64,000 nucleotides of DNA from Myxococcota bacterium (GTDB lineage Bacteria > Myxococcota_A > SURF-8): assembly GCA_963674735.2 (NCBI GenBank), contig CAXXQS010000002.1, positions 768,001 to 832,000 of the forward strand. The letters are read 5' to 3'. Below the pieces are notes generated by a model, which did no database searches, had not been told where the DNA came from, and saw nothing but the letters and a program-made list of their open reading frames with translations. Below are positions 7,178 through 39,517 of this stretch, one piece after another. Each line of letters starts with the position of its first letter. Position 1 is the first letter of the stretch. Made by a program: the position numbers and the translations under genes.

Positions 7178-7198
7178 TCCAAGCTACGGGAGTTTCAG

Positions 7199-7579
7199 AT
7201 GCCCCGAATTATCCTCCAAACCAAGAAAGCCCCGGCCGCCATCGGTCCGTATTCGCAAGCCGTTCAATACGGCGACCTGCTGTTTATCTCCGGTCAGATC
7301 CCCCTGGATCCCGGCACGATGAAACTCGTTGAGGGAGGAGTGGAAGAACAGACCCGGCGCGTGATGCTCAACCTCCAAGCCATTCTCGCCGAAGCGGGCA
7401 TGAGTTGGGATAACATTCTGAAAACAACCATTTACCTGGCTGACATGGCGGACTTCAAAACCGTCAATGAGATCTATGGCACATTCTTCCCAGAAAACGC
7501 TCCGGCACGCGCCACCGTGCAGGTCGGGCGTCTACCGCTCGACGTACGAGTGGAAATCGACGCCATTGCAGGCCGATAA
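7199..7579 (+). CDS. ridA: RidA/YjgF/UK114 reactive intermediate deaminase
   Basis: APAAIGPYSQA, SGQIPLDP, PARATVQV, VEIDAIA. Confidence 0.95.
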   Translation: MPRIILQTKKAPAAIGPYSQAVQYGDLLFISGQIPLDPGTMKLVEGGVEEQTRRVMLNLQAILAEAGMSWDNILKTTIYLADMADFKTVNEIYGTFFPENAPARATVQVGRLPLDVRVEIDAIAGR

Positions 7580-7594
7580 AGCGGAGAAATAGGG

Positions 7595-7822
7595 ATGGTT
7601 AAAAAGAAACAAGCCGCCCCCGGCGCAATGAAGGGATTGGCCGCGATCCTGCTGATGATCGAAGAAGAAGCCGATCCCACGAAAAGCGCAGCCCTGGAAT
7701 TTGTCTTGAAAGGAAGCGTGGAAAAATTGAGCGTCACTCGAAAAGACGTCGAGCGCTACCTCAAAGAAAACCGAGCGGCGGTCGCCGACGAGTTGAGCCG
7801 AAAGCAGCGGCCGACATCATGA
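7595..7822 (+). CDS. Small hypothetical protein (75 aa)
   Basis: Fills the ridA-mnmE gap; GGAG upstream; ATGA overlap with the mnmE start. Confidence 0.7.
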   Translation: MVKKKQAAPGAMKGLAAILLMIEEEADPTKSAALEFVLKGSVEKLSVTRKDVERYLKENRAAVADELSRKQRPTS

Positions 7823-9207
7823 CCCGCATCACCGACGACACCATCGCGGCGGTCACCACCCCGCCGGGCTCGGGTGGGGTGGGCATTATCCGCATTTCGG
7901 GAGAATCGGCCTTTGCGATCCTCGATGCGCTGTTCCATCCCGTCGCACGGAAAACCCAAGCCACCCACGGGCGCTCCGTACCCGGTACGATCGTCGATCC
8001 GACCGATGGACAACGGCTCGACTTCGTCCTGGCCCTACGTTTTTTTGCTCCCCATTCCTACACGGGGGAAAACGTAGCTGAAATACACGCCCACGGCGGC
8101 CGCCTGAACCTTGAACAGATTCTGTCATTGTGTCTGGCCCACGGTGCCCGCACGGCGCGTCCCGGTGAATTCACCCTGCGCGCCTTCCTAAATGGCAAGC
8201 TCGATCTGACTCGCGCCGAGGCGGTGCGGGAAGTGATCGAAAGTCAAACCGCCGCCGCCTTAAACGCTTCACGCCGCCATTTACAGGGCGATATCGCCAC
8301 CTTGTGTGAAACCGCGCGCGAATCCCTACTCGACATCCTGGCTCATATCGAGGCGCTGATCGATTTCCCCGAAGAAGATTTGCCGCCTTCCGCCGCCGCC
8401 GATTATAGCGAAACGATCCAAACCGTATCCCACACCCTGGGCCGTGCGGCCGACAGCTACGAGCGGGGACGACTCTTGCACGAAGGAGTGGAAGTCACCA
8501 TCGTCGGCGCACCCAACGTAGGAAAATCGTCGCTCCTCAATCGCTTGCTGCGTTCCGAACGCGCCATCGTCACCGACCAGCCGGGCACCACCCGCGACAT
8601 GGTCGATGGCATCATCGATCTGGCCGGGCTACCGGTACGTTTCGTCGATACGGCCGGACTGCGCGAAGCCGCCGCCGATCCGGTGGAAGCCATCGGCATG
8701 CAGCGTGCATGGAATCGTCTGGCGCAAGCCGATCTGGTGCTGTGGGTACTTGATGGCTCGCGCCCCCTGACAGACAACGAGCGCACACTGGCGACGCGCC
8801 TGGCTCCCCAGCGCGGCATCGCCATCCTGAACAAAGCCGACCGCCCGACCGCTTTGGATGTATCCGAACTGATACAGCTTGTCCCGGACTGGCCGACGGT
8901 TACGCTTTCCGCCAAAACCGGAGAGGGAATCGACGGACTCGAAACAGCGCTGAATCGTTTACTGGGCATGCCGTCGGTGGATTCCGATGAATTGTTGCTC
9001 ACCTCAGCTCGCCATCAACAGGGCTTTCGTCTGGCCGAACAGGCGTTAACTCGCACCCTGAATGCGCTGGAAAAAGGCGAAAACGCCTGGGAACTCATGG
9101 CCGCCGACCTTCATGAGGCACTCAACGCCCTGGAGGATCTGGTCGGCATCAGCACCCCCGATGACATCCTGCATCGCATTTTCTCGCGTTTCTGCATCGG
9201 CAAGTAA
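7819..9207 (+). CDS. mnmE: tRNA modification GTPase MnmE/TrmE
   Basis: DTIAAVTTP, SYTGENVAEIHAHGG, GAPNVGKSS, DTAG, NKAD, C-terminal FSRFCIGK. Confidence 0.97.
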   Translation: MTRITDDTIAAVTTPPGSGGVGIIRISGESAFAILDALFHPVARKTQATHGRSVPGTIVDPTDGQRLDFVLALRFFAPHSYTGENVAEIHAHGGRLNLEQILSLCLAHGARTARPGEFTLRAFLNGKLDLTRAEAVREVIESQTAAALNASRRHLQGDIATLCETARESLLDILAHIEALIDFPEEDLPPSAAADYSETIQTVSHTLGRAADSYERGRLLHEGVEVTIVGAPNVGKSSLLNRLLRSERAIVTDQPGTTRDMVDGIIDLAGLPVRFVDTAGLREAAADPVEAIGMQRAWNRLAQADLVLWVLDGSRPLTDNERTLATRLAPQRGIAILNKADRPTALDVSELIQLVPDWPTVTLSAKTGEGIDGLETALNRLLGMPSVDSDELLLTSARHQQGFRLAEQALTRTLNALEKGENAWELMAADLHEALNALEDLVGISTPDDILHRIFSRFCIGK

Positions 9208-22964: not shown

Positions 22965-25900
22965 TTAAACGTTATACGATCTTTCCGTATCAACCAAATC
23001 ACGCAAAACGGCAGGAAGAAGGGCCATGATATTCTGCACCAGCTTGCGCTCCAACACCGGTTTGGAAAGAAAGCCATCCGCTCCGGCCGTCAATGCGCGC
23101 TGGTGATGCTTGGCGCCACCGCGCGAGGTCAAAACGAGAAGCGGCAAATGCGCGGTTTCGGGATTCTCGCGCACCCGTTCCATCAATTCGTAGCCGTTCA
23201 GATTGGGCATCTCGAGATCCACGATCACCAGATCGGGCTTTAAGGTCTGCACCTTCTGCAACGCCACCAGCCCGTCTTTGGCCGTCGTAACGCGCATCCC
23301 GTGCTTGGCAAGCATATATGCCAATGTTTTTCTAACCGAGAGGGAATCATCGGCCACCAGAACTTCCACCTTACGCGGAGGACCGGGATCCGAGACAACC
23401 ATGGCGGGCAAATCGTCGTCCAATTCAAACAGGAAAGGAACATTCAGAACGGGTCGCACGTCCCCTTGCACCGTCACGGCCGTTCCCAGAAAATGGGAAC
23501 TGGCATCCAGAAGATTCGGAAGCTGCCGAACGATCACATCATCACGCCCGGTCACCGCGTTCACCACCAACGCCATACGACGATCCCCCGCCTTGAGGAT
23601 AATCACCGGCAGTCGTTGAAAGTTGCGTTCGTGGTCGAGCCGAAAAAAGCCCGCCAACCAGTTAACCGGCAAGATTTCGCCGTTCACTGACAAAGATTCC
23701 TCATCGGCGGCATCGAGGTCAACCATCCCGGGTTCCACAATGGTTTCGACATAGTTCATCGGCAAACTGAAATGAAACCGTTCGGCCGTCACGAAAAGGA
23801 TGGGCTGTACCGCGATCGTCATGGGCAATTTGATGGTAACCCGCGTTCCGGCTTCCGGCTCCGATTCCAGGGAAATCGAACCGTACAATTCGGCAATGGC
23901 GTGACGTACCGCATCCATTCCCACCCCGCGCCCCGACACCGTTCCGGCTTTGGGCCGCGTGCTGATCTGTGGGTGGAAAACCAAGTTCAGGAGTTCTTCG
24001 CGACTTTTGTTTTTCAGATCCTCTTCGTTCATCAGGCCGGCCTGCAAAGCCACCTCGGCAATGGCGTTCACATCGATTCCCGCACCGTCGTCGTCGATAC
24101 GCAAGACCACCGAACGTTCCTCGGTACTGGCCGACAAACGCAAAACGCCCGTCGCAGATTTACCGAGTCGCTCTCGTTCTTCCGGCAGTTCGATCCCGTG
24201 ATCGAGGCAATTGCGAATGACGTGCAGAAGCGAATCGGCAATGGTATCGATGACGCTTTTGTCGATTTCGGTCTGCCCGCCATACGTGAAGACACGCAGC
24301 TTTTTCCCCAGCGAGCGAGCAATATTCATACTTTGATAAGTGAGTGTGCGGAAGAACGTATCCATGGGAACCATACGGATCTGGATCATTTCGTCCTGAA
24401 TCTTACTCACGAGCGTATTGAACTCATAGCCCTGTTCGGTAAAATTGACCAGAAGGCTTTCGAGAATCTTGAAAACCGAACTGATTCGGTGGTCGAGATC
24501 TTCCAAATTCCGCGCGAATACGGCGAGGTCGGAATAGTGATCGAATTCCAGGTCACTGAAACCGGAACTATTGGGCTCCATCATGCCCGGCAACGGCATC
24601 GACCACTGGTGCTTCCGTTGAAAATCGCCAACCAATTTGGAAAGATTTTTACGTTCCCACTTGAGCTTTTTCGATAACCCGGAGAAAAGGCCGGTCAGAT
24701 CATCCAGGCGCGTGCGATAGGAGCTAAGCTCGCTCACCAGATTGATCATCTGATCCATGCGCGCCATCGAAACACGAAAGGTACGCGGATCGAGAACGGA
24801 TTCAACGGGCCGTTCGGAGGACGCCGGAACCGTTTGAGAATTCGCGGCCTCGTCGAACATCGATTCCGCCGCCGGATCTCCACCCGTCTGTCCGGCCGGT
24901 AAGATCTGAGCCACCAACCGATAAAGATCGCCAACCAGCCGATCCCCTTCTTCCGATTTCTCCGTCCCGATCTCGATCAATCGGCGTAAAATGCTTTCCG
25001 AACGATACAAAACGTCCAGCAGCACTTCGTCCAATGGCTGTTCCTTCTCGCGCCATAAATCGAACAGGTCTTCAAGGCGATGCGCCGCACGGGCCACCCG
25101 CTCGTTCCCGACCGTCGCCGCAGCACCTTTCAACGTATGTACGACACGATAAACCTGCTGCACCCGCTCGGACGAACGATCCCCGTTTTCAGCCTCCAGG
25201 ATATGCTGGCCAAGGGCCGCAAGATGCTCCTGGCTCTCCTGCATGAAGGCTTCTTCCAAATGGCGACGCATGGCCATATCGTCCAAGATGGGAGGAGCAT
25301 CGTAATCGAGCGATTCATCCTCCGTATCCTGGGGAATAAGCCTCGGCAGAATCAATTCGATATCATGCCGAAAGGCCTCCATAATCTCGACGTGCCGCCG
25401 TTCTCCTCGGGTCAGGTTCCGTAGAATGCCTTCCAAAGCCGCAAGAGCCGACTCGAAAAAACCCGAGACGGCATTGTCGATCGTCAAGCGACCGACTTCG
25501 ATATCTTCGAAAACGGCGACCATCACCGAGAGAACATCGAACAGTTCCTCCTGTTCGACCATCGCCGCGGACCCTTTGATATTCATCAGATAACGGAACA
25601 GGCGATTGCGCTCGATGGCACTTTCCGGTTCGCGACTCAGTTCGGCAACGCTACGGCGCATGCCTTTGAGAATCTCTCCCGCTTCTTCAACAAACAATTC
25701 GCGCAACTCATCGGATACGCTGTCGGGCAATCCCCCGGTTTGCAGGCCTGATTCGCTGACATGCGCGACATTCTTCCAGATGCCCACACAATCATCGCTG
25801 CGACCTTCACGAACCGCTTCGAGCATATCCACCAAAGCCAGACGAATCGTCCGGCTTTCTTCTTCGAGATCGGAAACCGTCGCCCCTCCACGAGCTTCCA

Positions 25901-26120
25901 TCTCTCCCAGTTTTTTGGAGAACGCGGCGGCAGCCTGAGCGATGGGATCCAATTGTACCGTGCTCGCGGCACCCTTGAAATTGTGCAACACATCATGCAG
26001 AGACGCGCGCACACCCAGAGGCTCGTCGGTATGTTGCGACAAGATTTGTGCGATGCGGCGCAGGTAGCCTTCCGCTTCGTCGAGGAAAGTGGCAAGCAAC
26101 TCCTGACGGTCGGGGGTCAT
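22965..26120 (-). CDS. cheA: CheA-like hybrid kinase of ChpA/PilL type (3 Hpt-like, dimerisation, HATPase, CheW, receiver)
   Basis: HNFKGAA, MNIKGSA, HTLKGAA; RNCLDHGIE; DDGAG; SGRGVGMD; C-terminal VADDS...DLEMP...KP. Confidence 0.93.
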   Translation of the reverse strand: MTPDRQELLATFLDEAEGYLRRIAQILSQHTDEPLGVRASLHDVLHNFKGAASTVQLDPIAQAAAAFSKKLGEMEARGGATVSDLEEESRTIRLALVDMLEAVREGRSDDCVGIWKNVAHVSESGLQTGGLPDSVSDELRELFVEEAGEILKGMRRSVAELSREPESAIERNRLFRYLMNIKGSAAMVEQEELFDVLSVMVAVFEDIEVGRLTIDNAVSGFFESALAALEGILRNLTRGERRHVEIMEAFRHDIELILPRLIPQDTEDESLDYDAPPILDDMAMRRHLEEAFMQESQEHLAALGQHILEAENGDRSSERVQQVYRVVHTLKGAAATVGNERVARAAHRLEDLFDLWREKEQPLDEVLLDVLYRSESILRRLIEIGTEKSEEGDRLVGDLYRLVAQILPAGQTGGDPAAESMFDEAANSQTVPASSERPVESVLDPRTFRVSMARMDQMINLVSELSSYRTRLDDLTGLFSGLSKKLKWERKNLSKLVGDFQRKHQWSMPLPGMMEPNSSGFSDLEFDHYSDLAVFARNLEDLDHRISSVFKILESLLVNFTEQGYEFNTLVSKIQDEMIQIRMVPMDTFFRTLTYQSMNIARSLGKKLRVFTYGGQTEIDKSVIDTIADSLLHVIRNCLDHGIELPEERERLGKSATGVLRLSASTEERSVVLRIDDDGAGIDVNAIAEVALQAGLMNEEDLKNKSREELLNLVFHPQISTRPKAGTVSGRGVGMDAVRHAIAELYGSISLESEPEAGTRVTIKLPMTIAVQPILFVTAERFHFSLPMNYVETIVEPGMVDLDAADEESLSVNGEILPVNWLAGFFRLDHERNFQRLPVIILKAGDRRMALVVNAVTGRDDVIVRQLPNLLDASSHFLGTAVTVQGDVRPVLNVPFLFELDDDLPAMVVSDPGPPRKVEVLVADDSLSVRKTLAYMLAKHGMRVTTAKDGLVALQKVQTLKPDLVIVDLEMPNLNGYELMERVRENPETAHLPLLVLTSRGGAKHHQRALTAGADGFLSKPVLERKLVQNIMALLPAVLRDLVDTERSYNV

Positions 26121-26129
26121 CGGAACTCC

Positions 26130-28370
26130 CTAATCCGTCACGGGTTCAAAAGAGTCGTCATCCGATTCGGCATCGGATGATGGCGAAACACCCTCTGCGG
26201 CCGCAAGCTCCACCTGCGGGTCGAAGTCGGACTCGCCGAGCAGATTAGCCAGACCGGTCGTATCCTGATCTTTCAGGGCGGGCAACATCCAGGTCGCCTT
26301 CAACCCTCGATCGAAATCCGGCTGCAGGCGATATGAATGAATAAGGCTGTTGAGAATCAACAGGGGATCGTATAGATTTTTGGTCTCTTTGGTGCTGCGA
26401 TAAATCCCTTCGGTGGTTTCACGCGACACCTGATAAATCGATTTGATCTGTTCGCCGATTTCGTCGGTCTGGTTCACCATTTGACGTGAGACGTTGGAAA
26501 TCTCCATGATTTTTTCGGCGGCCGCACCGATCACCTGATCGATCTGGCGCAGAGTCGACCCCGCCTGGTCGGCCTGTTTCCAGCCTTGCTCCACTTCGCG
26601 AGTCACCTCTTCCATGGCCAAAACGGCATCGTTGGTTTCGATCTGGATATCTTCGATGAACGAGGAAATTTCTTTGGTGGCGTTGGAGGTGCGTTCGGCC
26701 AGTTTGCGAATTTCGTCGGCAACCACCGCAAAGCCCTTGCCCTGTTCACCGGCCTTGCTGGCTTCGATGGTGGCGTTGAGCGAGAGAATGTTGGTCCGCG
26801 CCGAAATGTCGTTGATCAACTCGACGATGGCATTGATCTCCAGAGAACGGTCGCCCAAGGTCTTGATGGTTTTGGCGGTAGACTGCACGTTGGAGCGCAT
26901 ACGCTGCATGCTTTGGATGGTGGCATTGACGGTTCCCGCCCCTTCTTTGGCGGCGATGGTAGCTTTTTGCGCTTCTTCGTTGGCCATATCCGCCGAAAAC
27001 GAGACCCGTTGCATACTGCGCGCGGCCTGCTGCACCATGCTGGTGACATAGTGGATTTCCCGGCCTTGGCGCTTGGCGTCCAACGCGATCTTCCGCGAAG
27101 CATCCATGATGGAATTCGCACCCATGGAAATAAGCATACCCGCTTCGCGCACTTTGGCCACCAGGTTGGACATGTGATCGAGCATCATGTTGAAGGCATC
27201 CATCACCGACCCCAGCACATCCTCCGACACCTGCCCACGTTCAGTCAAGTCGCCATCGGAGGCGCGGCTGACCAATTCCAGCAAGCTGATGATATTTTCC
27301 TGAATGCGCTTTTTGTCTTCTTCACTCTGAATCAGTTCGGTGGTAGTATCCAGCATCCGATTGAGCGCCTGACCCAACTCCAGAAATTCCTCCCGCATGC
27401 CATCCAATCGAACGCGGCGGTCCAAATCTCCGCGCCGAATCGCTTCGGCCGTGTCGGTCAATTCGCGCACCGGATTGATCACACGTAAACGGGTGCTTCG
27501 GAATAGCAGGATAACGATTATTCCCCCGACCAAAGCTCCGGCGATCAGCAACGCCAAACTGGTACTGCGAATTTTACGCGATTTTTGATCGATGGCCATC
27601 AAGGTTTGATTGATCTGATTGAGCGATCCTTCCATCTCACCCACCACCTGGCGGGTCAACCCGCCGATGGAAGCGACGACAGACAGCGAATAAGGCGTGT
27701 CTTTAATGGGGCGCACAATAACGAATTTGGCGGACTCCGACTCGGGGCCGGTTTCGCTATTTGTTGCCATATCACGTGGGCGATAAACGGCCGAGATCGT
27801 TCCGATATTGTCCTGCAAGGACGGATTTGTTCGCAGGTCTTTGAGGATTTTCAAATAGCCCTTCTCGCGCATCAGGCGACTGACCAGGGGTAGATTCTGG
27901 TCGATACTGCCACCGGGCTCCACGTATTTGTCGAGAATTATTTTATCGAAAAACGGATTGAGAATGGATACTTGGCTTTCTTCGCCGATACGAGCCGTCT
28001 GAACCATCTCCAACATGTAACGATCGTTGGGCAATTCGCTTTCAATCAGGTTACGCATCGAAACAATCAGCGCCGATTCGTTGGATAAGGTCTCGGAGCG
28101 ACGCAATGCCGACAGTTTGAACAAGGTCTCGGTGTTGTTCATGGCCTTGCGCAACGATTCGTTGGCCTGAACGTAAGAAGCCGTGGTTTTTTCCTTGATA
28201 TCACTGACATCCAGGTTCACGACCAACGTCAGAACGGTCACGCACAGGTAAGGAAAAGCCACCGCAATCAGAATGACGGCGATCAGCTGTTTTCGTAATC
28301 CGATGCGGGTGTTGGACATCAATCGCTCCCGTAAACTGTCAGATTCTATCCGGTTCGCCTGGTTCGTCAA
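26130..28370 (-). CDS. Methyl-accepting chemotaxis protein (PilJ-like)
   Basis: Two TMs, HAMP, RTNILSLNATIEASKAGEQGKGFAVVADEIRKLAERT; start could be 28319. Confidence 0.94.
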   Translation of the reverse strand: MTNQANRIESDSLRERLMSNTRIGLRKQLIAVILIAVAFPYLCVTVLTLVVNLDVSDIKEKTTASYVQANESLRKAMNNTETLFKLSALRRSETLSNESALIVSMRNLIESELPNDRYMLEMVQTARIGEESQVSILNPFFDKIILDKYVEPGGSIDQNLPLVSRLMREKGYLKILKDLRTNPSLQDNIGTISAVYRPRDMATNSETGPESESAKFVIVRPIKDTPYSLSVVASIGGLTRQVVGEMEGSLNQINQTLMAIDQKSRKIRSTSLALLIAGALVGGIIVILLFRSTRLRVINPVRELTDTAEAIRRGDLDRRVRLDGMREEFLELGQALNRMLDTTTELIQSEEDKKRIQENIISLLELVSRASDGDLTERGQVSEDVLGSVMDAFNMMLDHMSNLVAKVREAGMLISMGANSIMDASRKIALDAKRQGREIHYVTSMVQQAARSMQRVSFSADMANEEAQKATIAAKEGAGTVNATIQSMQRMRSNVQSTAKTIKTLGDRSLEINAIVELINDISARTNILSLNATIEASKAGEQGKGFAVVADEIRKLAERTSNATKEISSFIEDIQIETNDAVLAMEEVTREVEQGWKQADQAGSTLRQIDQVIGAAAEKIMEISNVSRQMVNQTDEIGEQIKSIYQVSRETTEGIYRSTKETKNLYDPLLILNSLIHSYRLQPDFDRGLKATWMLPALKDQDTTGLANLLGESDFDPQVELAAAEGVSPSSDAESDDDSFEPVTD

Positions 28371-28821
28371 CCCTCACACCGGCATGACGCATTTCCCGTC
28401 GGATCTGCCCTTCCGTCAACCTGAGCAGTTGATCCACATCCACCACCGTGACCGTCGGTCCCGGCTGAGATAACGTGAAACGCGAGATCGGCGTAACGCA
28501 AGGTTGCAGGTCGTCCACATCGGCGGTTACGATTTTATGTATTTCGCTGGCCGCAATGCTGAAACGCTGCCCGGCCGCCTCCACCAGGATTGCCTGCAGG
28601 TGGCGAAAATAGGGCATCCCCGTATCAGGCAGATTTAACGCCGCCAAATCCAGGACCACCAGCGCTTCCCCGTGGTAATTCGTCAGCCCCATCAGGATTG
28701 AAGGTGTCAACGGTAAAGTGGTCAGATTGTCCAGATCGAAAACACGTTCCACTAGTTTGGTTGGAAGCGCCCAACGTCCCGCCGCATCCTGAAAGAGTAA
28801 AAATTCCGACTTCGCCAGCAT
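28339..28821 (-). CDS. cheW: CheW-like adaptor
   Basis: LTTLPLTPSILMGLTNYHGEALVVLDL; position within the che operon. Confidence 0.85.
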   Translation of the reverse strand: MLAKSEFLLFQDAAGRWALPTKLVERVFDLDNLTTLPLTPSILMGLTNYHGEALVVLDLAALNLPDTGMPYFRHLQAILVEAAGQRFSIAASEIHKIVTADVDDLQPCVTPISRFTLSQPGPTVTVVDVDQLLRLTEGQIRREMRHAGVRVDEPGEPDRI

Positions 28822-28875
28822 AAGGTTGCCTCGCACGACCGCACAGGTGCCTGGACAGACCGCAAGGTCGCTTGG

Positions 28876-29238
28876 TTATGCCAGATACCGCTTGACTTTA
28901 TCAAGAAGCACGCCGACTTGAAAGGGTTTACTCAAATACTCCGTCGCGCCCTGCTTCAATCCCCAATAAACATCACTGGTTAGACTCTTCGCGGAAATCA
29001 TGATGATTGGAACACGTCGGTTTTCTTTTCGGGATTTTAGGCTTCGACAAACTTGATATCCGTCTTTTTTGGGCATCACCACATCCAGAATCATCAAGTC
29101 CGGATGCGTTTCATTGAACCGTCGCTCGGCTTCCTCACCATTCTCCGCCTCAACCAATTCATGGCCGAGTTCACGCAAAGCTTCGGCATAAACCTGCCGT
29201 TCAGTCGGTGAATCATCCGCGATCAGAATGCGTGCCAC
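28876..29238 (-). CDS. PilH/CheY-like single-domain response regulator
   Basis: ILIADDSPTE, LDVVMPKKDGYQVCR, DVYWGLKQGA, SKPF; GTG start with RBS GGGAGG. Confidence 0.9.
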   Translation of the reverse strand: MARILIADDSPTERQVYAEALRELGHELVEAENGEEAERRFNETHPDLMILDVVMPKKDGYQVCRSLKSRKENRRVPIIMISAKSLTSDVYWGLKQGATEYLSKPFQVGVLLDKVKRYLA

Positions 29239-29506
29239 ACGAACCTCCCTGTACAAGACCGCTAAGCCGCACCTTGCTTCAAACAGGACATCAAGCCTTG
29301 ATAGTTTGGCATAAAACACCGAAAATATCAAGTATTTCTGCAACCATACCCAATTCGAGACAAGACATGACCCATAGGCCAAGTTCACCTAATGCCGGGT
29401 TTTCCCTTGCAATTAAATCGGCCACTGGCTAATAATCTTGAATCTACTTGGCAGGGTACGCCGAACGAATCGTGCAGGGCCTGTACCGCCCGGGAAATGA
29501 AAAAAC

Positions 29507-32068: not shown

Positions 32069-32136
32069 ACCGACTCAAATTTATGCATGCGTCTCACACC
32101 GAAAAGGATCCGGAATTCGCAGACAGGGGAGGCGAT

Positions 32137-34221
32137 ATGAAATCGACTGTCAGAAGATGCGCGGCGGCCATCATTGTTGTGTGGTTAGCCTGCTTGCCTA
32201 TGGCTGTTTTAGCTCAAGATGCCGAGGGAACCGCGCCGACGCCGGCTCCCGCAGCAGAAGCTCCTGCGGCTGAAACCGCCCCGGAAGGGGCCGCGCCGCC
32301 TGACACGGCAGCCGCCGAGCCGCCCGCTTTTCCTTCGCCGGTTGAGCCTGTCCCGACCGATACGGCGGTCGAACCGGTGCCGACGGATGAGCAACCGGCA
32401 GAAAATGTTGAGGAAGTCGGCGATATCGACATCGACAGCCTCGACGATCTGGAAGACCTCGAACAGCTTGAGGAACTCGAAGATCTCGAAGGCGCACAGC
32501 TGGCCGAGCGGGAGCAATTGAAGTTCTTCGAACTCAATGGTTATCTGCGCTTGCGCGCCGATCTTTTCCATCAGCTCGACTTGGGCGTCTACAACTCCTT
32601 GCGTCCGTTGGGCGATTTGGGTACCGCCGACCACACCTCGGAAGACAAGCGCAAAGACAACACCATCGGCACCGCCAACATGCGGCTGCGCCTCAACCCG
32701 ACGTTGAATGTCAGCGAAGACATCAAAATCATGATGCAGGCCGACATCCTCGACAACGTCGTACTCGGCACCACCCCCGACACCTATCTGCGCGGCGGTC
32801 CCGGCGGTCTCGGACCGGGTATCTCGGGCTTCGCCACCTCACAGGTCGCCCAGCAGGCCGGACGCAACAGCGATGTCGATTCCATCCAGATCAAACGCGT
32901 ATGGGCCGAAGTCCGCACGCCCGTCGGTCTGCTCAAATTCGGTCGTCAGCCCTCCCATTGGGGCACCGGCATGTACATCAACGACGGCAATTGCGTCGAC
33001 TGCGATTACGGCGATACGGTCGATCGCATCCTGTTCGGCACCAAGATCTTCGAACACATCCTGTTCCTCGGCATGGACTTCGTCAACGAAGGCATCACCG
33101 ACGACACCCAGTTCGAATACGGCGGCCAGGATAAAGACGCCACCCAGCTCGACGATGTCCAGCAGATCGTTTTCGGTTTCGCGCGCAAACACACCGACGC
33201 CGAAGCGGAAGAGTTGATCGAAAACAACGACTTCGTCATCGATTACGGTTTCTACAATGTCCTGCGCTGGCAGTCCTACAGCCTGGAACAATCCGTCATC
33301 GGCGATCCCAGCAACCAAGCGGGCGATTTCGCCTCGCGCCAGAACCTGCGCGCCCAGCTCATCGAGCGTGACCTGAAGCTCTATGTCGGCGATATCTGGT
33401 TTAAATTCCTGTGGAAACGTCTCCATATCGAGCTGGAAGCCATCTGGATCACCGGATCGTTGGGCGATGCCGCCAAAGACGCCGCCGAGCAGACCTCGCT
33501 GCGCCAGAAGGGCATCACCGACAACAGCATCGACATCAACCAATATGGCGTCGTCTTCCAGATCGACTACAAATTCCTCGACGACGCCTTGTTCGTCGGC
33601 GCGGAATGGGGCCTCGCTTCGGGCGACCCCTACAACGGTCCCTACGGCAACGGTTACGACACCGGCTTCGGCGTTTATCCCTACCAGGATCGCCAGTTCG
33701 CCGACGCCAAATACCAGCGCACCAAAAACGGCCCCATGATCGAAGACCGGGCGGTCAACAACTTCCGCTTCGATCCCGATTACCACGTCGATTTGATCCT
33801 GTTCCGCGAGATCATCGGCACCGTGACCGACGCCACCTACGTCAAACCGTCCATCCAGTACAACATCACGCCGTCGATCGGTGCGCGCCTCGATGCCATC
33901 ATCAGCTTCGCGATGGAAGCCGACAGCACGCCGTCGTACTACCACATGAAATATGAAACCGTCGACGACGTCGTCGCGGGTGAATTGCCGTTGGAACGTA
34001 AAACCAATAACTATCTGGGCTCCGAGCTCGATCTGACCGTGTTTTACAAATCCTTCGACGGCTTCGGCATGCAGCTGCAATACGGCGTGTTCTTCCCCGG
34101 CGAAGCCTTCGGTTACTGGGACGGCGAATACATCAATGACAGCGGCGAACGCGAACCGACCTGGTTCTACGCCCCCAACATCGCCCAGACCGTCCAGGCC
34201 AACCTGACCGTCGAATTCTAA
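32137..34221 (+). CDS. TIGR04551-like myxobacterial outer-membrane protein
   Basis: ELNGYLRLR, RLNPTLNVSED, DILDNVVLG, IKRVWAEV, GRQPSHWG, DCDYGDTVDR, NFRFDPDYHVDLILFREIIG; terminal F; family recognised from memory. Confidence 0.8.
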   Translation: MKSTVRRCAAAIIVVWLACLPMAVLAQDAEGTAPTPAPAAEAPAAETAPEGAAPPDTAAAEPPAFPSPVEPVPTDTAVEPVPTDEQPAENVEEVGDIDIDSLDDLEDLEQLEELEDLEGAQLAEREQLKFFELNGYLRLRADLFHQLDLGVYNSLRPLGDLGTADHTSEDKRKDNTIGTANMRLRLNPTLNVSEDIKIMMQADILDNVVLGTTPDTYLRGGPGGLGPGISGFATSQVAQQAGRNSDVDSIQIKRVWAEVRTPVGLLKFGRQPSHWGTGMYINDGNCVDCDYGDTVDRILFGTKIFEHILFLGMDFVNEGITDDTQFEYGGQDKDATQLDDVQQIVFGFARKHTDAEAEELIENNDFVIDYGFYNVLRWQSYSLEQSVIGDPSNQAGDFASRQNLRAQLIERDLKLYVGDIWFKFLWKRLHIELEAIWITGSLGDAAKDAAEQTSLRQKGITDNSIDINQYGVVFQIDYKFLDDALFVGAEWGLASGDPYNGPYGNGYDTGFGVYPYQDRQFADAKYQRTKNGPMIEDRAVNNFRFDPDYHVDLILFREIIGTVTDATYVKPSIQYNITPSIGARLDAIISFAMEADSTPSYYHMKYETVDDVVAGELPLERKTNNYLGSELDLTVFYKSFDGFGMQLQYGVFFPGEAFGYWDGEYINDSGEREPTWFYAPNIAQTVQANLTVEF

Positions 34222-34692: not shown

Positions 34693-34724
34693 CAGCGGCT
34701 GCTTCGGCGGCCGCTGTCGTTTTA
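34693..34724 (+). terminator. Terminator after the tRNAs
   Basis: CAGCGGCTGC-TTCG-GCGGCCGCTG then T-rich sequence. Confidence 0.65.
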
Positions 34725-34857
34725 TGCGCCTTCTTGCCATCCTGCCGCTTTCACTATTTTCCGCCCTCGCCCTTGCCCCTTTATCGAATCGTGATACAAT
34801 GAATGAAAACGCCAGCCGATCCGACAGGTTGCGCGGCATCACCAAACAGGATCGCCC

Positions 34858-35835
34858 ATGCCCGTACCATATCCAGATCAGGACGCCATCAAAGAGCGCG
34901 TCTATGCGCTGACCGGCCAAAAAGTTTACAGCAAGGTTGAAGTGGTGGAAGACACCACCCAGTTCATGAATATTACGCGTGGAAACGTACTGCGTCTGGG
35001 CGCACGCGAATTTTTCGTGTTGGGAGACATGCGCGAACCGCGCTTCGGTATGAACGATCAGCCCAAATACTGGGTCAAGCGCGTCCTCGATCTCGACGAT
35101 GACATCATTCGCTTGATCAAGCTGGTCTTCCACGAAGAATTCACCGCGCATATCGGTCCGATTCGCATGCGGTGCTGGCGTAGTCCGGAAAAAGAGGCCC
35201 GCGTTTTGGACCTCACCCAAAACGACGACCGCTTCATGCACGGCGTTTCCATGCCCGATGCCAACGGAAACGTGGTGCGCATCATCGATTTCATCGAAGG
35301 CCCCACCCTTTACGACGTCATCATGGACCTGGAGATCGATCACGAAACCTACTTTCAAACGATGTTCCCGACCGTTTTACGCAATCTGGTGCACACTATG
35401 GAGGCGATTCGCCTGCTGCATCAGCACGGGTTATGCCACGGCGATATCCGCAACGACCACATCATGATCGAGAGCGGCACCCGGCGTTATCGCTGGATCG
35501 ACTTCGATCTGACCCAACGTTTCTCCGATTTCGACGTATGGAGCTTCGGCAATGTCCTGCAATTCACCACCGGCATGGGCATGATGAGCTTCCATGAAGT
35601 GCGCGAATCCGAGCGCTTCAGCCCCGAGATCGGACGAAGCCTGTCCAGCGGCGATGCCGCCGCCTTTTACAAATACCGCATCATGAATCTGCGTAAAATT
35701 TACGGGTATATCCCGGAGCGCCTCAACCGCATTCTGATGCGCTTTTCGCTCAACACCAAAACGTATTACGAAACCATGCAACAAGTGCTGACCGACGTCG
35801 GGGAAGTCCTGGACGCCGATTTTCCTGCGACCTAA
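34858..35835 (+). CDS. Cytoplasmic protein-kinase-like protein (Ser/Thr kinase family)
   Basis: LIKLVF (Lys), SPEKE, IDFIEGPTL hinge, HGDIRNDH catalytic loop, WIDFD, DVWSFG. Confidence 0.82.
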   Translation: MPVPYPDQDAIKERVYALTGQKVYSKVEVVEDTTQFMNITRGNVLRLGAREFFVLGDMREPRFGMNDQPKYWVKRVLDLDDDIIRLIKLVFHEEFTAHIGPIRMRCWRSPEKEARVLDLTQNDDRFMHGVSMPDANGNVVRIIDFIEGPTLYDVIMDLEIDHETYFQTMFPTVLRNLVHTMEAIRLLHQHGLCHGDIRNDHIMIESGTRRYRWIDFDLTQRFSDFDVWSFGNVLQFTTGMGMMSFHEVRESERFSPEIGRSLSSGDAAAFYKYRIMNLRKIYGYIPERLNRILMRFSLNTKTYYETMQQVLTDVGEVLDADFPAT

Positions 35836-35859
35836 GCGGATCAACGTCAAAGGAGCGCC

Positions 35860-37359
35860 ATGCCTTTCAAGATCGGCACGAAACTCGTTATCGCGGTGGT
35901 TTTTTTCGCCATCATGGGTATCGGTATCACGGCCGGTTTCGCCTTCGATTTCTATCGCACCGCCATCATCGAAGAAATGATCCAGGCCGGGCGTCAGCTT
36001 TCGGGGGCGGTCAAAGGCGCGCTGCGCGAAGACATGATGCATAATCGCACGGAAGGAATGCGCCAGATCATTTCCAGCGTCGGCAATCAGGCGGAGGTCA
36101 CCCGCGTACGCATGTTCAATAAAGCGGGCATTATCCGCTACAGTTCCGACGCCGAAGAAGAAAACACCAAGGTGGACAAGCGCGCGGAAGCCTGTTTGCT
36201 CTGCCACGCCAACGATGCCAGCCAGCCCCCCAAAGCCACCTTGCAACATCGTTTGTTCAACGGCGATGACAACGTTTTGTATCTGGGCATCTCCGATCCG
36301 GTTTACAACGACCGCAGTTGCTGGACCGCTCCCTGCCACGCTCACAAATCCAACGAAAGCGTGCTCGGCTTTTTGGAGGTGGATATCCCTCTCACTCAGA
36401 TGGAAAAGAAAATCCAAACAGGCCGCCTGCATACCGTTCTGTTCGCTCTGGCGGCGGTGATCGCCATTTCGTTCATCACCCTGATTTTGGTGCGTCAACT
36501 CATTCTGGTTCCGGTGGCCAAAGTGGTGGACGCCACCAACCGCGTGGGCGGCGGCGAGTGGACCAACCCCATCTACGGTGCCCGTCAGGATGAAATGGGC
36601 CAGCTTATTCATGCCTTCAACCGCATGCAGGAAAAGATGCAGGTAAGCCAGCGCCAGCTCATCATGTCCGGCAAGCTGGCCTCGGTGGGTAAGCTGGCGG
36701 CCGGTGTGGCGCACGAAATCAACAATCCCCTAACCGGGATTCTCACCTTCGCCGAAGATCTGATCGACGAATCCGATACCGACGACCCGCGCATGGAGGA
36801 TTATCAGGTGATCCGGCGCGAAACCATGCGCTGCCGTGAAATCGTGCGCAACCTACTCGACTTCGCCCGTCCCGAGAAACCCGCCATCACCTCCGTGGAC
36901 ATCCGCGACGTCATCATGAAAAGCGTCAAGTTGGTGGAACGTCTGGCACAATTCCAGAACTGCCGAATCAACGCCGACTTACAGCTGGACCTGCCGCTGG
37001 TGCGGGGCGATGAAGGCCAGCTGCAGCAGGTCTTTTTGAATCTGATCGTCAATGCCTCCGAAGCGATGCCGGACGGCGGCGAGATCCGCATCGCCTCGCG
37101 TCACGAACCCGGCGACCCGCTGATCGAGGTGATCATCAGCGATGAGGGTCTCGGTATGACCTCCGATCAGAAACAGCACATTTTCGAGCCCTTCTTCTCC
37201 ACCAAAGGAGGACGCACACAAGGCTTGGGTCTTTCGGTAAGTTGGGGTATCATTGAGCAGCACGGCGGCAGTATCGATGTGGTAACCGCCCCGGATGCGG
37301 GCACCACCTTCACGGTGCGCTTGCCGGTCGACCGTAGCGGGATGCGTTGGAAGTCTTAA
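35860..37359 (+). CDS. Membrane histidine kinase with periplasmic heme c motifs
   Basis: TM, CLLCH and CWTAPCH, TM, HAMP, AHEINNPL, QVFLNLIVNA, GLGLS. Confidence 0.92.
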   Translation: MPFKIGTKLVIAVVFFAIMGIGITAGFAFDFYRTAIIEEMIQAGRQLSGAVKGALREDMMHNRTEGMRQIISSVGNQAEVTRVRMFNKAGIIRYSSDAEEENTKVDKRAEACLLCHANDASQPPKATLQHRLFNGDDNVLYLGISDPVYNDRSCWTAPCHAHKSNESVLGFLEVDIPLTQMEKKIQTGRLHTVLFALAAVIAISFITLILVRQLILVPVAKVVDATNRVGGGEWTNPIYGARQDEMGQLIHAFNRMQEKMQVSQRQLIMSGKLASVGKLAAGVAHEINNPLTGILTFAEDLIDESDTDDPRMEDYQVIRRETMRCREIVRNLLDFARPEKPAITSVDIRDVIMKSVKLVERLAQFQNCRINADLQLDLPLVRGDEGQLQQVFLNLIVNASEAMPDGGEIRIASRHEPGDPLIEVIISDEGLGMTSDQKQHIFEPFFSTKGGRTQGLGLSVSWGIIEQHGGSIDVVTAPDAGTTFTVRLPVDRSGMRWKS

Positions 37360-37385
37360 ACGACGACCCTAGAGGAGCGAAGACA

Positions 37386-38165
37386 ATGGCGGAACGAGCC
37401 AAGATTCTGGTGGTGGACGACGAAGATGTCGTGTTGCTTAGCATTCGAAAAGTTTTTAAAAGCGATGCCTTCGAACTGGATACCGTTCAATCGCCCCAAC
37501 TCGGCCTGGCTATGGTGGAGTCACGCAATTACGACGTGGTCATTACCGATCTGATGATGCCGGGCATGAACGGGCTGGAATTTCTCGACAAAGTCCGCGC
37601 CATGGACCCCGGCGTGCGCGTCATCATGATCACCGGTTATGCGACGATGCGCACCGCCCTGCAATCCATGCGACGCGGCGCGTTCGATTTTCTGGCCAAA
37701 CCCTTCACCAAGGAAGAACTGAGCAACGTCGTGCATCGCGCCATGCAGCGCGGCTCCATGACCGAAGAACCGGCCGACGCCTCACTTGCGGGAGCTTCGG
37801 AGAGCGCCGGGGCTCTGGAACCCGGACGCACCTATACCCTGCGGAATCACAGTTGGGCACGCATCGAACCCGATATGCGCGTGGTTATCGGTGTGGAACC
37901 GCATTATCTGTCCACCGTGGGCGACGTATCCGACCTCGAATTGCCCAAACCGGGCGAGGGTGTTTCGCAAGGGGGCGGCTGCGCCAAGTTGTTCACCGCC
38001 GACGGGCGCACCTACAGCCTGTGGTGCCCGCTTTCCGGGCGCGTGCTGACACTCAATACGGAGGTCATGGAAAACCCGGCGCGGCTGACGGAAAAATCGC
38101 GCGACCTGTGGTTGATCAAGATCGATCCCACCGCCATCGAACACGAAATCGAAAACCTGCTCTGA
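37386..38165 (+). CDS. Response regulator with a C-terminal GcvH (glycine cleavage H)-like domain
   Basis: LVVDDE...TDLMMPGMNG...ITGY...KPF, then HSWARIE...VGDVSDLELPKPG...CPLSGRVLTLN...WLIKI; no ESVKA lipoyl motif. Confidence 0.85.
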   Translation: MAERAKILVVDDEDVVLLSIRKVFKSDAFELDTVQSPQLGLAMVESRNYDVVITDLMMPGMNGLEFLDKVRAMDPGVRVIMITGYATMRTALQSMRRGAFDFLAKPFTKEELSNVVHRAMQRGSMTEEPADASLAGASESAGALEPGRTYTLRNHSWARIEPDMRVVIGVEPHYLSTVGDVSDLELPKPGEGVSQGGGCAKLFTADGRTYSLWCPLSGRVLTLNTEVMENPARLTEKSRDLWLIKIDPTAIEHEIENLL

Positions 38166-38242
38166 TCCTCTTCCTTGCCCGAATATCCCGGATGGGGCAT
38201 CCTGGCAGGGTAGGGACCGTTACGCGACGGAGAGCGCCATCT

Positions 38243-39517
38243 ATGACCTCACAGCGCATTATTTTACCCGCCTCGACAACCGCAGAAAGCTTCCGACACG
38301 CGGAAAATGTCATCAAAGAGGCCTGCCGGAATCCCGGCGCATCCCTGCGTTTTGCCTGCGCAACACCCGAGCAGGCCGGAGCGCTGGTAAGGCTCGTTCG
38401 GCTGGCCCACTCGCTGGGCGCAGCGTCGATCGAGGTCGAGCGCTCCGACTGGCTTGAAAACACAGCGAAAGTAACCCGCGCGCTCGAATTGGCCGGACTG
38501 ACCGACTGGCTCCCGTCCGACACGCCGAACACAACTGCGGCTGACCTCGAAGCCGAGCGGGCCGCCTGGTTCCGTCGTCATCCCGAACTTTTACCCCAGG
38601 ATTTCGTGCAAACCGCCAGTCGCTTGTCGAAAAACGAACAAGTGCGAGAGGCCATCATCCGGCCGGTCTACCGCTGCAACGAAAAATGCCATTTCTGCTG
38701 GATCTATCAGGAACAAGACGACCCGCCCGCCGCCACATCGGCCGAGGCGGTGGCGCGTCTGGCACGGCAAGGCTTCGATCTCCTCACGATTTCCGGTGGC
38801 GAACCCACCCTCTTTCACGGCTTGCCTGAGTTGATTCGACAAGCGAAAACCGAGGGATTCCGTTGGGTAACCTTGCAAACCAATGGGTTGCTGCTGGCAC
38901 AAGCCACCCGCGTGAAGGCTTTGGTCGAAGCGGGCTTGGATGAAGTTTTCCTGGCCCTGCATGCCGCCGATCCGGCTATCCACGACACCATCACCCAGCA
39001 TCCGGGCGCTCATGCCAAGACCTTGCAGGCCTTCGACCATCTATTGGACGCGCCACTGAAAGTCTGCATCAACGTGGTGCTGTGCCGTCCGAACCTAGCC
39101 GATTTGCCCGCTTTGGCGCAGCTTCTGGCCGAACGGGCCGAGCGGATCGGGCGTGACCTCACCCTCAATCTAGCTGTAGCGGCGCCCATGGGTCGCTACG
39201 CCGAACACTACGCCGCCTACACACCGCGCCTGACCGAGCTACAGGTGCCGTTGACCGAAGCCCTGGATATTCTGCGAAAAAGCCGGGTGCGTTACGACGG
39301 TTTTTCCTCGGCCTGCGGCGCGCCTTTATGTGCCGTCGGAAACCGACCCGACCTGTTGGCGGGAATCGCCCCGCTGCCGGATTCCGAACGCGGAGCGGAA
39401 TTCGTTCAGCCCGCCGCCTGCGAAAGCTGCCGCCTGCGCGCCGCCTGCCACGGCGTGCGCCGCGTCTATATCGAGGTTTTCGGTCCCGACGACCTGCAGC
39501 CTTTCCGTGAGTCGTAG
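38243..39517 (+). CDS. Radical SAM protein with a C-terminal Cys cluster (SPASM/twitch-like)
   Basis: CNEKCHFC, SGGEPTL, LQTNG, CGAPLC, CESCRLRAACHG. Confidence 0.9.
   Translation: MTSQRIILPASTTAESFRHAENVIKEACRNPGASLRFACATPEQAGALVRLVRLAHSLGAASIEVERSDWLENTAKVTRALELAGLTDWLPSDTPNTTAADLEAERAAWFRRHPELLPQDFVQTASRLSKNEQVREAIIRPVYRCNEKCHFCWIYQEQDDPPAATSAEAVARLARQGFDLLTISGGEPTLFHGLPELIRQAKTEGFRWVTLQTNGLLLAQATRVKALVEAGLDEVFLALHAADPAIHDTITQHPGAHAKTLQAFDHLLDAPLKVCINVVLCRPNLADLPALAQLLAERAERIGRDLTLNLAVAAPMGRYAEHYAAYTPRLTELQVPLTEALDILRKSRVRYDGFSSACGAPLCAVGNRPDLLAGIAPLPDSERGAEFVQPAACESCRLRAACHGVRRVYIEVFGPDDLQPFRES

Follow-up and report, generated by a model that had tools for sequence, protein, structure and literature searches.

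Response regulators that are mechanistically understood mostly bind DNA or bear known enzyme domains, and CheY, RssB, PhyR and RomR are response regulators with protein-binding, non-DNA outputs. GcvH-like proteins also occur outside glycine cleavage: LbpA proteins of sHdr sulfur oxidation are reported to be GcvH-like and to act with Hdr-like iron-sulfur (Fe-S) enzymes (PMC6067878). We analyzed a stretch of 64,000 nucleotides (nt) from a Myxococcota bacterium (assembly GCA_963674735.2, contig CAXXQS010000002.1, positions 768,001 to 832,000 of the forward strand; hereafter the window), which encodes a kinase (PK), a sensor histidine kinase (HK) and a response regulator (RR) with a GcvH-like output domain. 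The data point to a conserved signalling module of three genes, with a two-component system whose non-transcriptional, GcvH-like output works by protein contact and with PK as a co-evolving partner, probably the effector; our confidence in this reading as a whole is evenly balanced between its being right and wrong. The three genes are co-directional with gaps of 24 and 26 nt, and the coordinates recovered from the open reading frames (ORFs) were the same as those of a preliminary description of this DNA. The genes and their main parts are as follows.

34858..35835, + strand: PK, predicted soluble atypical Hanks-type kinase, 325 amino acids (aa)
35860..37359, + strand: HK, sensor histidine kinase, 499 aa, with a first transmembrane (TM) segment, periplasmic domain, second TM segment, HAMP, HisKA and HATPase_c
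35953..36429, + strand: periplasmic sensor domain, HK residues 32-190, predicted PDC/sCache-like fold with two c-haem attachment motifs
36193..36207, + strand: CxxCH motif (CLLCH), HK residues 112-116
36319..36339, + strand: Cx4CH motif (CWTAPCH), HK residues 154-160
37386..38165, + strand: RR, 259 aa, with a receiver (REC), a variable linker of ~25 aa and a GcvH-like domain
37830..38162, + strand: lysine-less GcvH-like output domain of RR, with Asp206 at 38001-38003

The preliminary description had made its proposal depend on the three genes occurring together elsewhere, and the trio was found to recur across phyla. When species genomes were scanned with RR as the starting point, a full-length REC-GcvH-like gene was obtained at 16 loci. 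In 7 of these 16, RR adjoined a homologue of PK (42-50% identity, E 1e-88 to 1e-121), five of them in the order of the window and two (L014 and L021) with PK downstream on the opposite strand. Among 80 metagenome loci collected from PK, 39 held PK, then HK, then a REC-GcvH-like gene, 6 with 3.2 kb or more of downstream sequence did not, and 35 were too short to tell, so that 45 loci were informative. The 39 trio loci are not 39 independent events, because several are near-duplicates. Clustering of all ORFs of the 80 loci showed no further conserved gene beside the trio.

The association was also seen where the genes are not neighbours. PK was present in 8 genomes and RR in 10 genomes of a 401-genome sample of the window's phylum, and all 8 genomes with PK also had RR; in one family of this phylum (G381, G211 and G236) PK and RR were adjacent but convergent. 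All four genomes whose RR is unlinked to PK (L005, L007, L013 and L019) had PK elsewhere (E ~1e-142), while a separate RR clade, represented by five genomes (L003, L006, L008, L011 and L012), had no PK in any of them. The presence of PK in RR genomes was 11/11, versus 0/5 for this separate clade. In the RR tree the separate clade, which is HEAT/WD40-linked, was a starred branch (99/97), and all other clades included PK-associated members. Indirectly, 15 pairs across the lists of RR and PK homologues shared an equal longest-contig size. PK went with RR in seven or more named phyla or candidate phyla. Co-evolution of PK with this RR clade, both adjacent and unlinked, is strongly supported by these data, and PK-HK-RR is not a chance neighbourhood. 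No consistent partner was seen among the neighbours of PK genes that are unlinked from RR.

The receiver of RR matched Response_reg (PF00072) with 101.9 bits against a cut-off of 30.2 and was nearest to NtrC/AtoC/NosR-type receivers. Residues D11, D12, D55, T83 and K105 were invariant in 25 of 25 sequences, a pattern that marks a complete phospho-acceptor receiver. The linker of ~25 residues varied in sequence and length among 25 homologues. The part behind it matched GCV_H (PF01597) with 39.8 bits (cut-off 22.2), and the C-terminal 117 residues matched solved H proteins from pea (1dxm, E 3.2e-11 over 107 residues) and E. coli (3a7a, E 2.9e-10). In alignments to the solved H proteins, which showed an insertion of one residue, the lipoyl-Lys column fell on Asp206 of FTADGRT. 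The proposal that the output is a GcvH fold with TADG at the lipoyl-Lys site was thus borne out by the Pfam match, the match to solved H proteins and the position of Asp206. Most of the 25 RR homologues had Asp or another non-Lys residue at the lipoyl position, as judged by eye, and the position eight residues ahead of the PLSG proline varied. The hairpin read D-x-R-x-H/Y in most of the 25, with Arg208 conserved, and the H-protein core motifs LELP, QG, PLSGxV..N and GWL were kept. Because the lipoyl-Lys column holds no lysine, the output of RR is an H-protein fold that cannot serve as a lipoyl carrier.

Pfam and NCBIfam scans reported no DNA-binding family for RR, which agrees with the preliminary description. 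The canonical GcvH of the same genome (150.9 bits) is encoded by a separate gene on another contig, and GCV_T lies at C2:2298346, on the same contig as the window (C2:768001-832000) and ~1.47 Mb from it, so gcvT is indeed absent beside the trio; GcvP and GcvL were not searched for. A search for longer proteins with the GcvH-like part fused into them yielded none that scored, which is weak evidence by the tool's own rating. Homologues of RR formed 613 clusters at 90% identity, and public annotation of RR and PK homologues reads merely 'response regulator' or 'hypothetical protein'.

Barrel-sandwich hybrid domains widely serve as structural modules, and the GcvH-like domain could be a dimerisation or structural module, or could use the former lipoyl-arm cleft to bind a small molecule, with PK and RR sharing a regulon without touching. 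Retention of the GcvH core motifs PLSGxV..N and GWL is consistent with this explanation. However, the D-x-R motif of the hairpin and QG are conserved at the surface site that bears the swinging arm in H proteins, and PK and RR co-occur even when unlinked. We regard this explanation as improbable.

PK matched Pkinase (PF00069) with 23.7 bits, below the cut-off of 31.7. A PK homologue in L004 scored 36.6 bits, and many members of the PK family carry a precomputed PF00069 label. The family comprises 776 clusters of proteins of ~320 aa, which are ~50% identical across phyla and nearly all annotated as hypothetical; the nearest PK clusters in the ESM Atlas were all named 'hypothetical protein'. The mean column identity of an alignment of 24 PK sequences was 59%. 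K88, E113, C-H-G-D-I-R-N-D-H (193-201), W-I-D-F-D-L (213-218) and D-x-W-S (226-229) were invariant in 24 of 24 aligned homologues. The invariant residues include both atypical motifs, HGDIRNDH (194-201) and DFD (215-217), which the preliminary description had noted in a soluble kinase. A profile search of PDB sequences paired D196 and D215 with the Asp residues of HRD and DFG, respectively, matched DxWS to the alphaF motif and placed His201 in the catalytic-loop Asn column of solved kinases. From the profile coordinates, K88 and E113 are candidates for the beta3 Lys and the alphaC Glu, respectively.

The AlphaFold model of PK, built with the 24-member alignment, had a predicted local distance difference test (pLDDT) score of 91.1. 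It matched PknB 1mru with Z 17.3 and a root-mean-square deviation (rmsd) of 4.5 over 228 aligned residues, and S. aureus PknB 4eqm with Z 17.1; Foldseek gave a probability of 1.0 to Stk1, PknB, BRAF and CK1. By this model, PK adopts a full two-lobe Hanks-type kinase fold. The distance from DFD (215-217) to DxWS (226-229) was only 8 residues in all 24 PK sequences, and helix alphaF of the model begins at residue 224. Because only these 8 residues lie between DFD and DxWS, an activation loop, an APE motif and a P+1 loop are absent throughout the PK family. The Pfam scan and the model showed no sensor, regulatory, PASTA or TM domain in PK. A RIO/Bud32/Kdo-type minimal kinase was considered and rejected, as the NCBIfam scores were 15-20 bits against cut-offs of 125-199 and the listed structural matches were full-length Hanks kinases.

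HK matched HisKA (55.9 bits), HATPase_c (82.7 bits) and HAMP (44.3 bits), all above the cut-offs. Hydrophobic segments at HK residues ~9-29 and ~192-214, read from the sequence, flank a loop of ~160 residues that holds CLLCH and CWTAPCH, and both motifs lie exactly where the preliminary description had placed them. In cytochromes c3, Cx4CH serves as a haem motif. Fourteen of 14 distinct homologous sensors from other loci had exactly one CxxCH and one Cx4CH, ~41 residues apart. Twelve sensors, only 21-36% identical to that of the window, were aligned; the Cys, Cys and His of both motifs made up 6 of the 11 invariant columns, and a Met (M28) was nearly invariant. The model of the sensor domain, with only 12 sequences behind it, had a pLDDT of 78.9 and matched WalK (Z 14.7), then Mlp24, CitA (Z 11.9) and DcuS. 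Its match to the c-haem domain of GSU0935 (3b42) had a Foldseek E of 8.4e-6 but an rmsd of 13.9, and its match to the haem protein Tll0287 (5b82) had a VIA-align Z of 8.7. The periplasmic domain of HK is thus modelled as a PDC/sCache-type extracytoplasmic PAS-like fold. The genome holds a Cytochrom_C_asm protein (139.7 bits), which makes c-haem attachment plausible. Together, motifs and model give good support to a predicted haem-c sensor.

These results also bear on another explanation of the locus, that the three genes are unrelated neighbours whose Cys/His motifs arose by chance or form a non-haem metal site. The shortness of the CxxCH motif is the single point in its favour. The recurrence of the trio across phyla contradicts it in the co-occurrence counts, and both motifs persist in all 14 sensors at 21-36% identity and make up 6 of the 11 invariant columns. 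We consider this explanation hardly credible.

The di-haem Cache-like sensor was found beyond the window in 14 distinct histidine kinases (those of L001, L002 and 12 metagenome loci) and in the genome G036. Of the PK-linked kinases at species-genome loci, the remaining five had two PAS domains each. The input domain of HK is interchangeable, haem or PAS. The earlier proposal of haem-c sensing stood with respect to the motifs, which were present in 14/14 homologues, and to the PDC/PAS-like model matching GSU0935. However, haem is one interchangeable input, and most PK-linked kinases have PAS domains.

In the module that we propose, the haems would report a periplasmic redox or gas signal, and HK would phosphorylate Asp55 of RR. 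Phosphorylation may free or re-orient the tethered GcvH-like barrel, which would act by protein-protein contact, with the flexible linker of ~25 residues letting it engage a partner. The likeliest partner of the barrel would be PK, and RR would switch the activity or the substrate access of PK, because PK has neither a regulatory domain nor an activation segment. His-Asp signalling would thereby be coupled to a Ser/Thr phosphorylation or ATPase output. The sensor type varies between haem and PAS while PK remains ~50% identical, which ties PK to the output side and not to the input. PK as an effector rather than an input is favoured because it tracks the RR clade and not the sensor type, stays by RR on reordering and is without a signal-receiving domain. 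A more specific form of this proposal is that the phospho-receiver delivers the lysine-less H-protein mimic to PK as its missing regulatory and substrate-positioning element, in a widespread His-Asp to Ser/Thr relay of uncultured anaerobic phyla with haem or PAS inputs; we put this forward tentatively, as a possibility that we doubt more than we believe. A complex prediction for PK with RR residues 148-259 gave a score of 0.00 and a mark of 0.32, and bears neither way on binding.

Several observations weigh against PK as the effector of RR. With His201 in place of the catalytic-loop Asn, PK may act as an ATPase or be a pseudokinase. No REC-GcvH-like regulator was found nearby in 6 of the 45 informative PK loci. 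In the tree, the window has its nearest relative in the genome G036 (one contig, 93% completeness), which retains the di-haem HK (54% identity) and RR (63%), and no PK was found in it at E<=1e-30, nor any remnant of PK in the locus, so the HK-RR pair can persist without PK. In L001, L002 and L010 a start or stop codon of PK overlaps the HK gene, the overlap being 1-4 nt, an arrangement just as compatible with a partnership of PK and HK. Other partners are indicated by the rare fusions, described below, that join the GcvH-like domain to Fe-S or Hdr-like domains.

The gene overlaps in L001, L002 and L010 are also consistent with PK as an upstream second input, the role given to it in the preliminary description, which would phosphorylate RR, on the receiver or on the GcvH-like domain, or HK on Ser/Thr, the target of the GcvH-like domain lying elsewhere. 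The same co-occurrence data apply to this alternative, and Hanks kinases are known to phosphorylate response regulators. However, PK has no sensor or regulatory domain to take a second signal, and it is missing the activation and P+1 segment that normally holds a peptide substrate. In the RR homologue alignments, no Ser/Thr in the GcvH-like hairpin was invariant, which also weakens the earlier suggestion that the hairpin Thr is a kinase target. On balance, a second-input role of PK appears unlikely.

Relatives of the GcvH-like domain with links to redox proteins were also found. P0265 (445 aa) consists of REC, a lysine-less GcvH-like domain and Fer4_8, and P0241 (1391 aa) has three lysine-less GcvH-like domains, a GlcD-type flavin adenine dinucleotide (FAD) oxidase, Fer4_8 and two CCG domains (an HdrD-like module). 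These are two of 25 Pfam-scanned proteins, drawn from the best 150 of 9262 matches. In two candidate-phylum genomes, Fer4_8 (~540 aa), Fer4_11 and NrfD genes lie directly 5' of the trio (L001, 1289-5240; L002, 1274-5207) and form a quinone-linked Fe-S membrane module. Such observations are consistent with the lysine-less GcvH-like domain being a carrier-protein mimic that would bind to an enzyme of Hdr-like, Fe-S, quinone-linked or lipoyl-dependent type and thereby adjust respiration directly, with PK as no more than an accessory. The HK-RR pair without PK in G036 fits this explanation, and lipoylated GcvH-like LbpA proteins are reported to work with sHdr complexes (PMC6067878). However, no Hdr/CCG or comparable redox-partner gene was found within the window, the 15 CCG matches of the genome all lie outside it, no redox gene is conserved by the trio in the 80 metagenome loci, and the fusions are confined to the two proteins among the 25 scanned. 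The strict profile of PK (11/11 versus 0/5) would be left unexplained. We therefore regard the carrier mimic as quite unlikely. For docking on a lipoyl-dependent or respiratory complex, as put forward in the preliminary description, the two rare fusions and two NrfD/FeS-adjacent loci are only suggestive, and no fourth gene is conserved in the 80 loci.

The remaining features of the locus are the two listed here.

34773..34800, + strand: candidate sigma-70-like promoter (TTGCCC-16-TACAAT with TG), upstream of PK and downstream of the tRNA-Cys terminator
38192..39517, + strand: radical SAM protein with an N-terminal extension of ~150 aa, 27 nt past RR

Upstream of PK lie tRNA-Gly and tRNA-Cys, followed by a terminator-like hairpin at 34693-34716. 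The promoter candidate comes from a consensus scan only, which gave 2 promoter-like sites versus 2.5 expected, so it is weak. A terminator scan found no strong-stem terminator-like site between the PK, HK and RR genes. The RR ORF has an alternative TTG start at 37347. The radical SAM protein contains CxxxCxxC in YRCNEKCHFCW, and its top family matches were of the HxsC/MoaA type, far under the cut-offs. It was tested as a fourth member of the module and rejected: a homologue past RR was found in L083 alone (E 4.5e-74), with no match in its near-duplicate L084, and blastp gave no match in L001-L080. One weak non-adjacent match was seen in L055, and the radical SAM gene that follows RR in L103 is unrelated. 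Because the RR-following homologue was found only in L083, the radical SAM gene is a local, lineage-specific addition. Elsewhere in the window, a chemosensory cluster at 22965-29388 (- strand) encodes a CheA-like hybrid kinase (1051 aa, with two Hpt, CheW and a receiver), a methyl-accepting chemotaxis protein (MCP), CheW and a receiver protein. Just 5' of the tRNA genes, at 32083-34221 (+ strand), lies a gene for a protein of the TIGR04551 family (477.5 bits), whose N-terminus is acidic and of low complexity and whose C-terminal part is Alginate_exp-like.

Variation was seen among the related loci. In G036 (L164, G036:C1), the di-haem kinase and the regulator are encoded at 6422-8770, and a gene for a 651-aa polytopic membrane protein stands in the place of PK. 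The genome G258, in which no PK was found, has two tandem overlapping and very divergent REC-GcvH-like genes (L169, G258:C577, 186-935 and 907-2163). In the separate RR clade the regulator is followed by a HEAT and WD40 protein of ~1050 aa (L003 8793-11918, L006 7559-10270, L008 9069-12233 and L012 9043-12231), and in the same four of its five loci a dCache/sCache kinase precedes RR. Rrf2 and phosphate-transport or PhoU genes lie near the RR of this clade in L003, L006 and L012. A hidden kinase domain in the HEAT/WD40 neighbours was looked for with the PK profile and rejected, as only negative scores were obtained. Among the PK loci without an HK-RR pair, a Cytidylate_kin2 gene, confirmed by Pfam, lies 3' of PK in L104 (7056-7871) and L135 (4153-5004). 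A putative gene of the same family, at 2875-3690 of L107, also lies 3' of PK, and the ORF cluster that includes it spans 6 loci; L106 and L172 have an HGSNAT/Acyl_transf_3 gene 3' of PK instead. An apparent PK-HK fusion in L124 was not counted, because its stop-to-stop frame carries an X where the two parts join, from a position that is ambiguous or a stop.

Each part of the proposed PK-HK-RR module is of a known kind: HK and RR make up a two-component system, the output of RR is an H-protein fold, PK is modelled as a Hanks kinase fold and the sensor of HK is of a predicted haem-c PAS-like type. Their combination is not of a known kind. The literature searched, which did not cover subscription journals, held no description of REC-GcvH regulators, of a lysine-less H-protein barrel as the output of a receiver, or of the PK-HK-RR trio. 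The analysis defines a large RR family whose output fold is borrowed from a metabolic carrier protein, and it identifies a specific and testable partner for RR, the activation-loop-less kinase PK. If the partnership is true, it would show a new way in which the two main phosphorylation systems of bacteria are wired together, and bacteria of sediments and the subsurface, where this conserved family of hypothetical proteins is common, would provide a first function for it. The di-haem Cache-like sensor offers, in addition, a compact model of how redox or gas signals may be sensed in the periplasm.

RR was compared with CheY, RssB, PhyR and RomR. Like these regulators, it has a complete receiver and no DNA-binding domain, and it presumably acts by phosphorylation-gated protein contact. 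However, its output is an H-protein barrel, which is not among the outputs met in the literature searched. The similarity of the output to GcvH (PF01597; 1dxm and 3a7a) extends over the whole domain (E 3e-11 to 3e-10) and includes G-[IV]-x, LELP, PLSGxV..VN and GW[LI]. In contrast to GcvH, the RR domain has Asp206 for the lipoyl-Lys, a one-residue insertion and a conserved Arg two residues on, and it sits behind a receiver and not by gcvT, the canonical GcvH being separate in the genome. The likeness to LbpA lies in the occasional fusion of relatives of the RR domain to Fer4_8/CCG domains. LbpA is reported to be lipoylated on a conserved lysine and to stand alone (PMC6067878), whereas the RR domain is lysine-less and no shdr genes were found in the window.

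PK shares with the Hanks kinases PknB (1mru), Stk1/PknB (4eqm), PknG and YabT the predicted two-lobe fold, HxD, DFx, DxWSxG and candidates for the beta3 Lys and the alphaC Glu. It differs from them in scoring under the Pkinase cut-off, in the absence of an activation loop, APE and P+1, in the change of Asn to His and in extra N-lobe strands, and it has no sensor, PASTA or TM domain. The sensor of HK resembles those of the Geobacter chemoreceptors GSU0935 and GSU0582 (3b42 and 3b47) and the haem protein Tll0287 (5b82) in a predicted periplasmic PAS/PDC-like fold with CxxCH. However, it has two motifs (CxxCH and Cx4CH) where GSU0935 and GSU0582 have one, its closest fold matches are non-haem sCache/PDC domains (WalK with Z 14.7, CitA and DcuS), and it is carried on a HAMP-HisKA kinase and not on an MCP.

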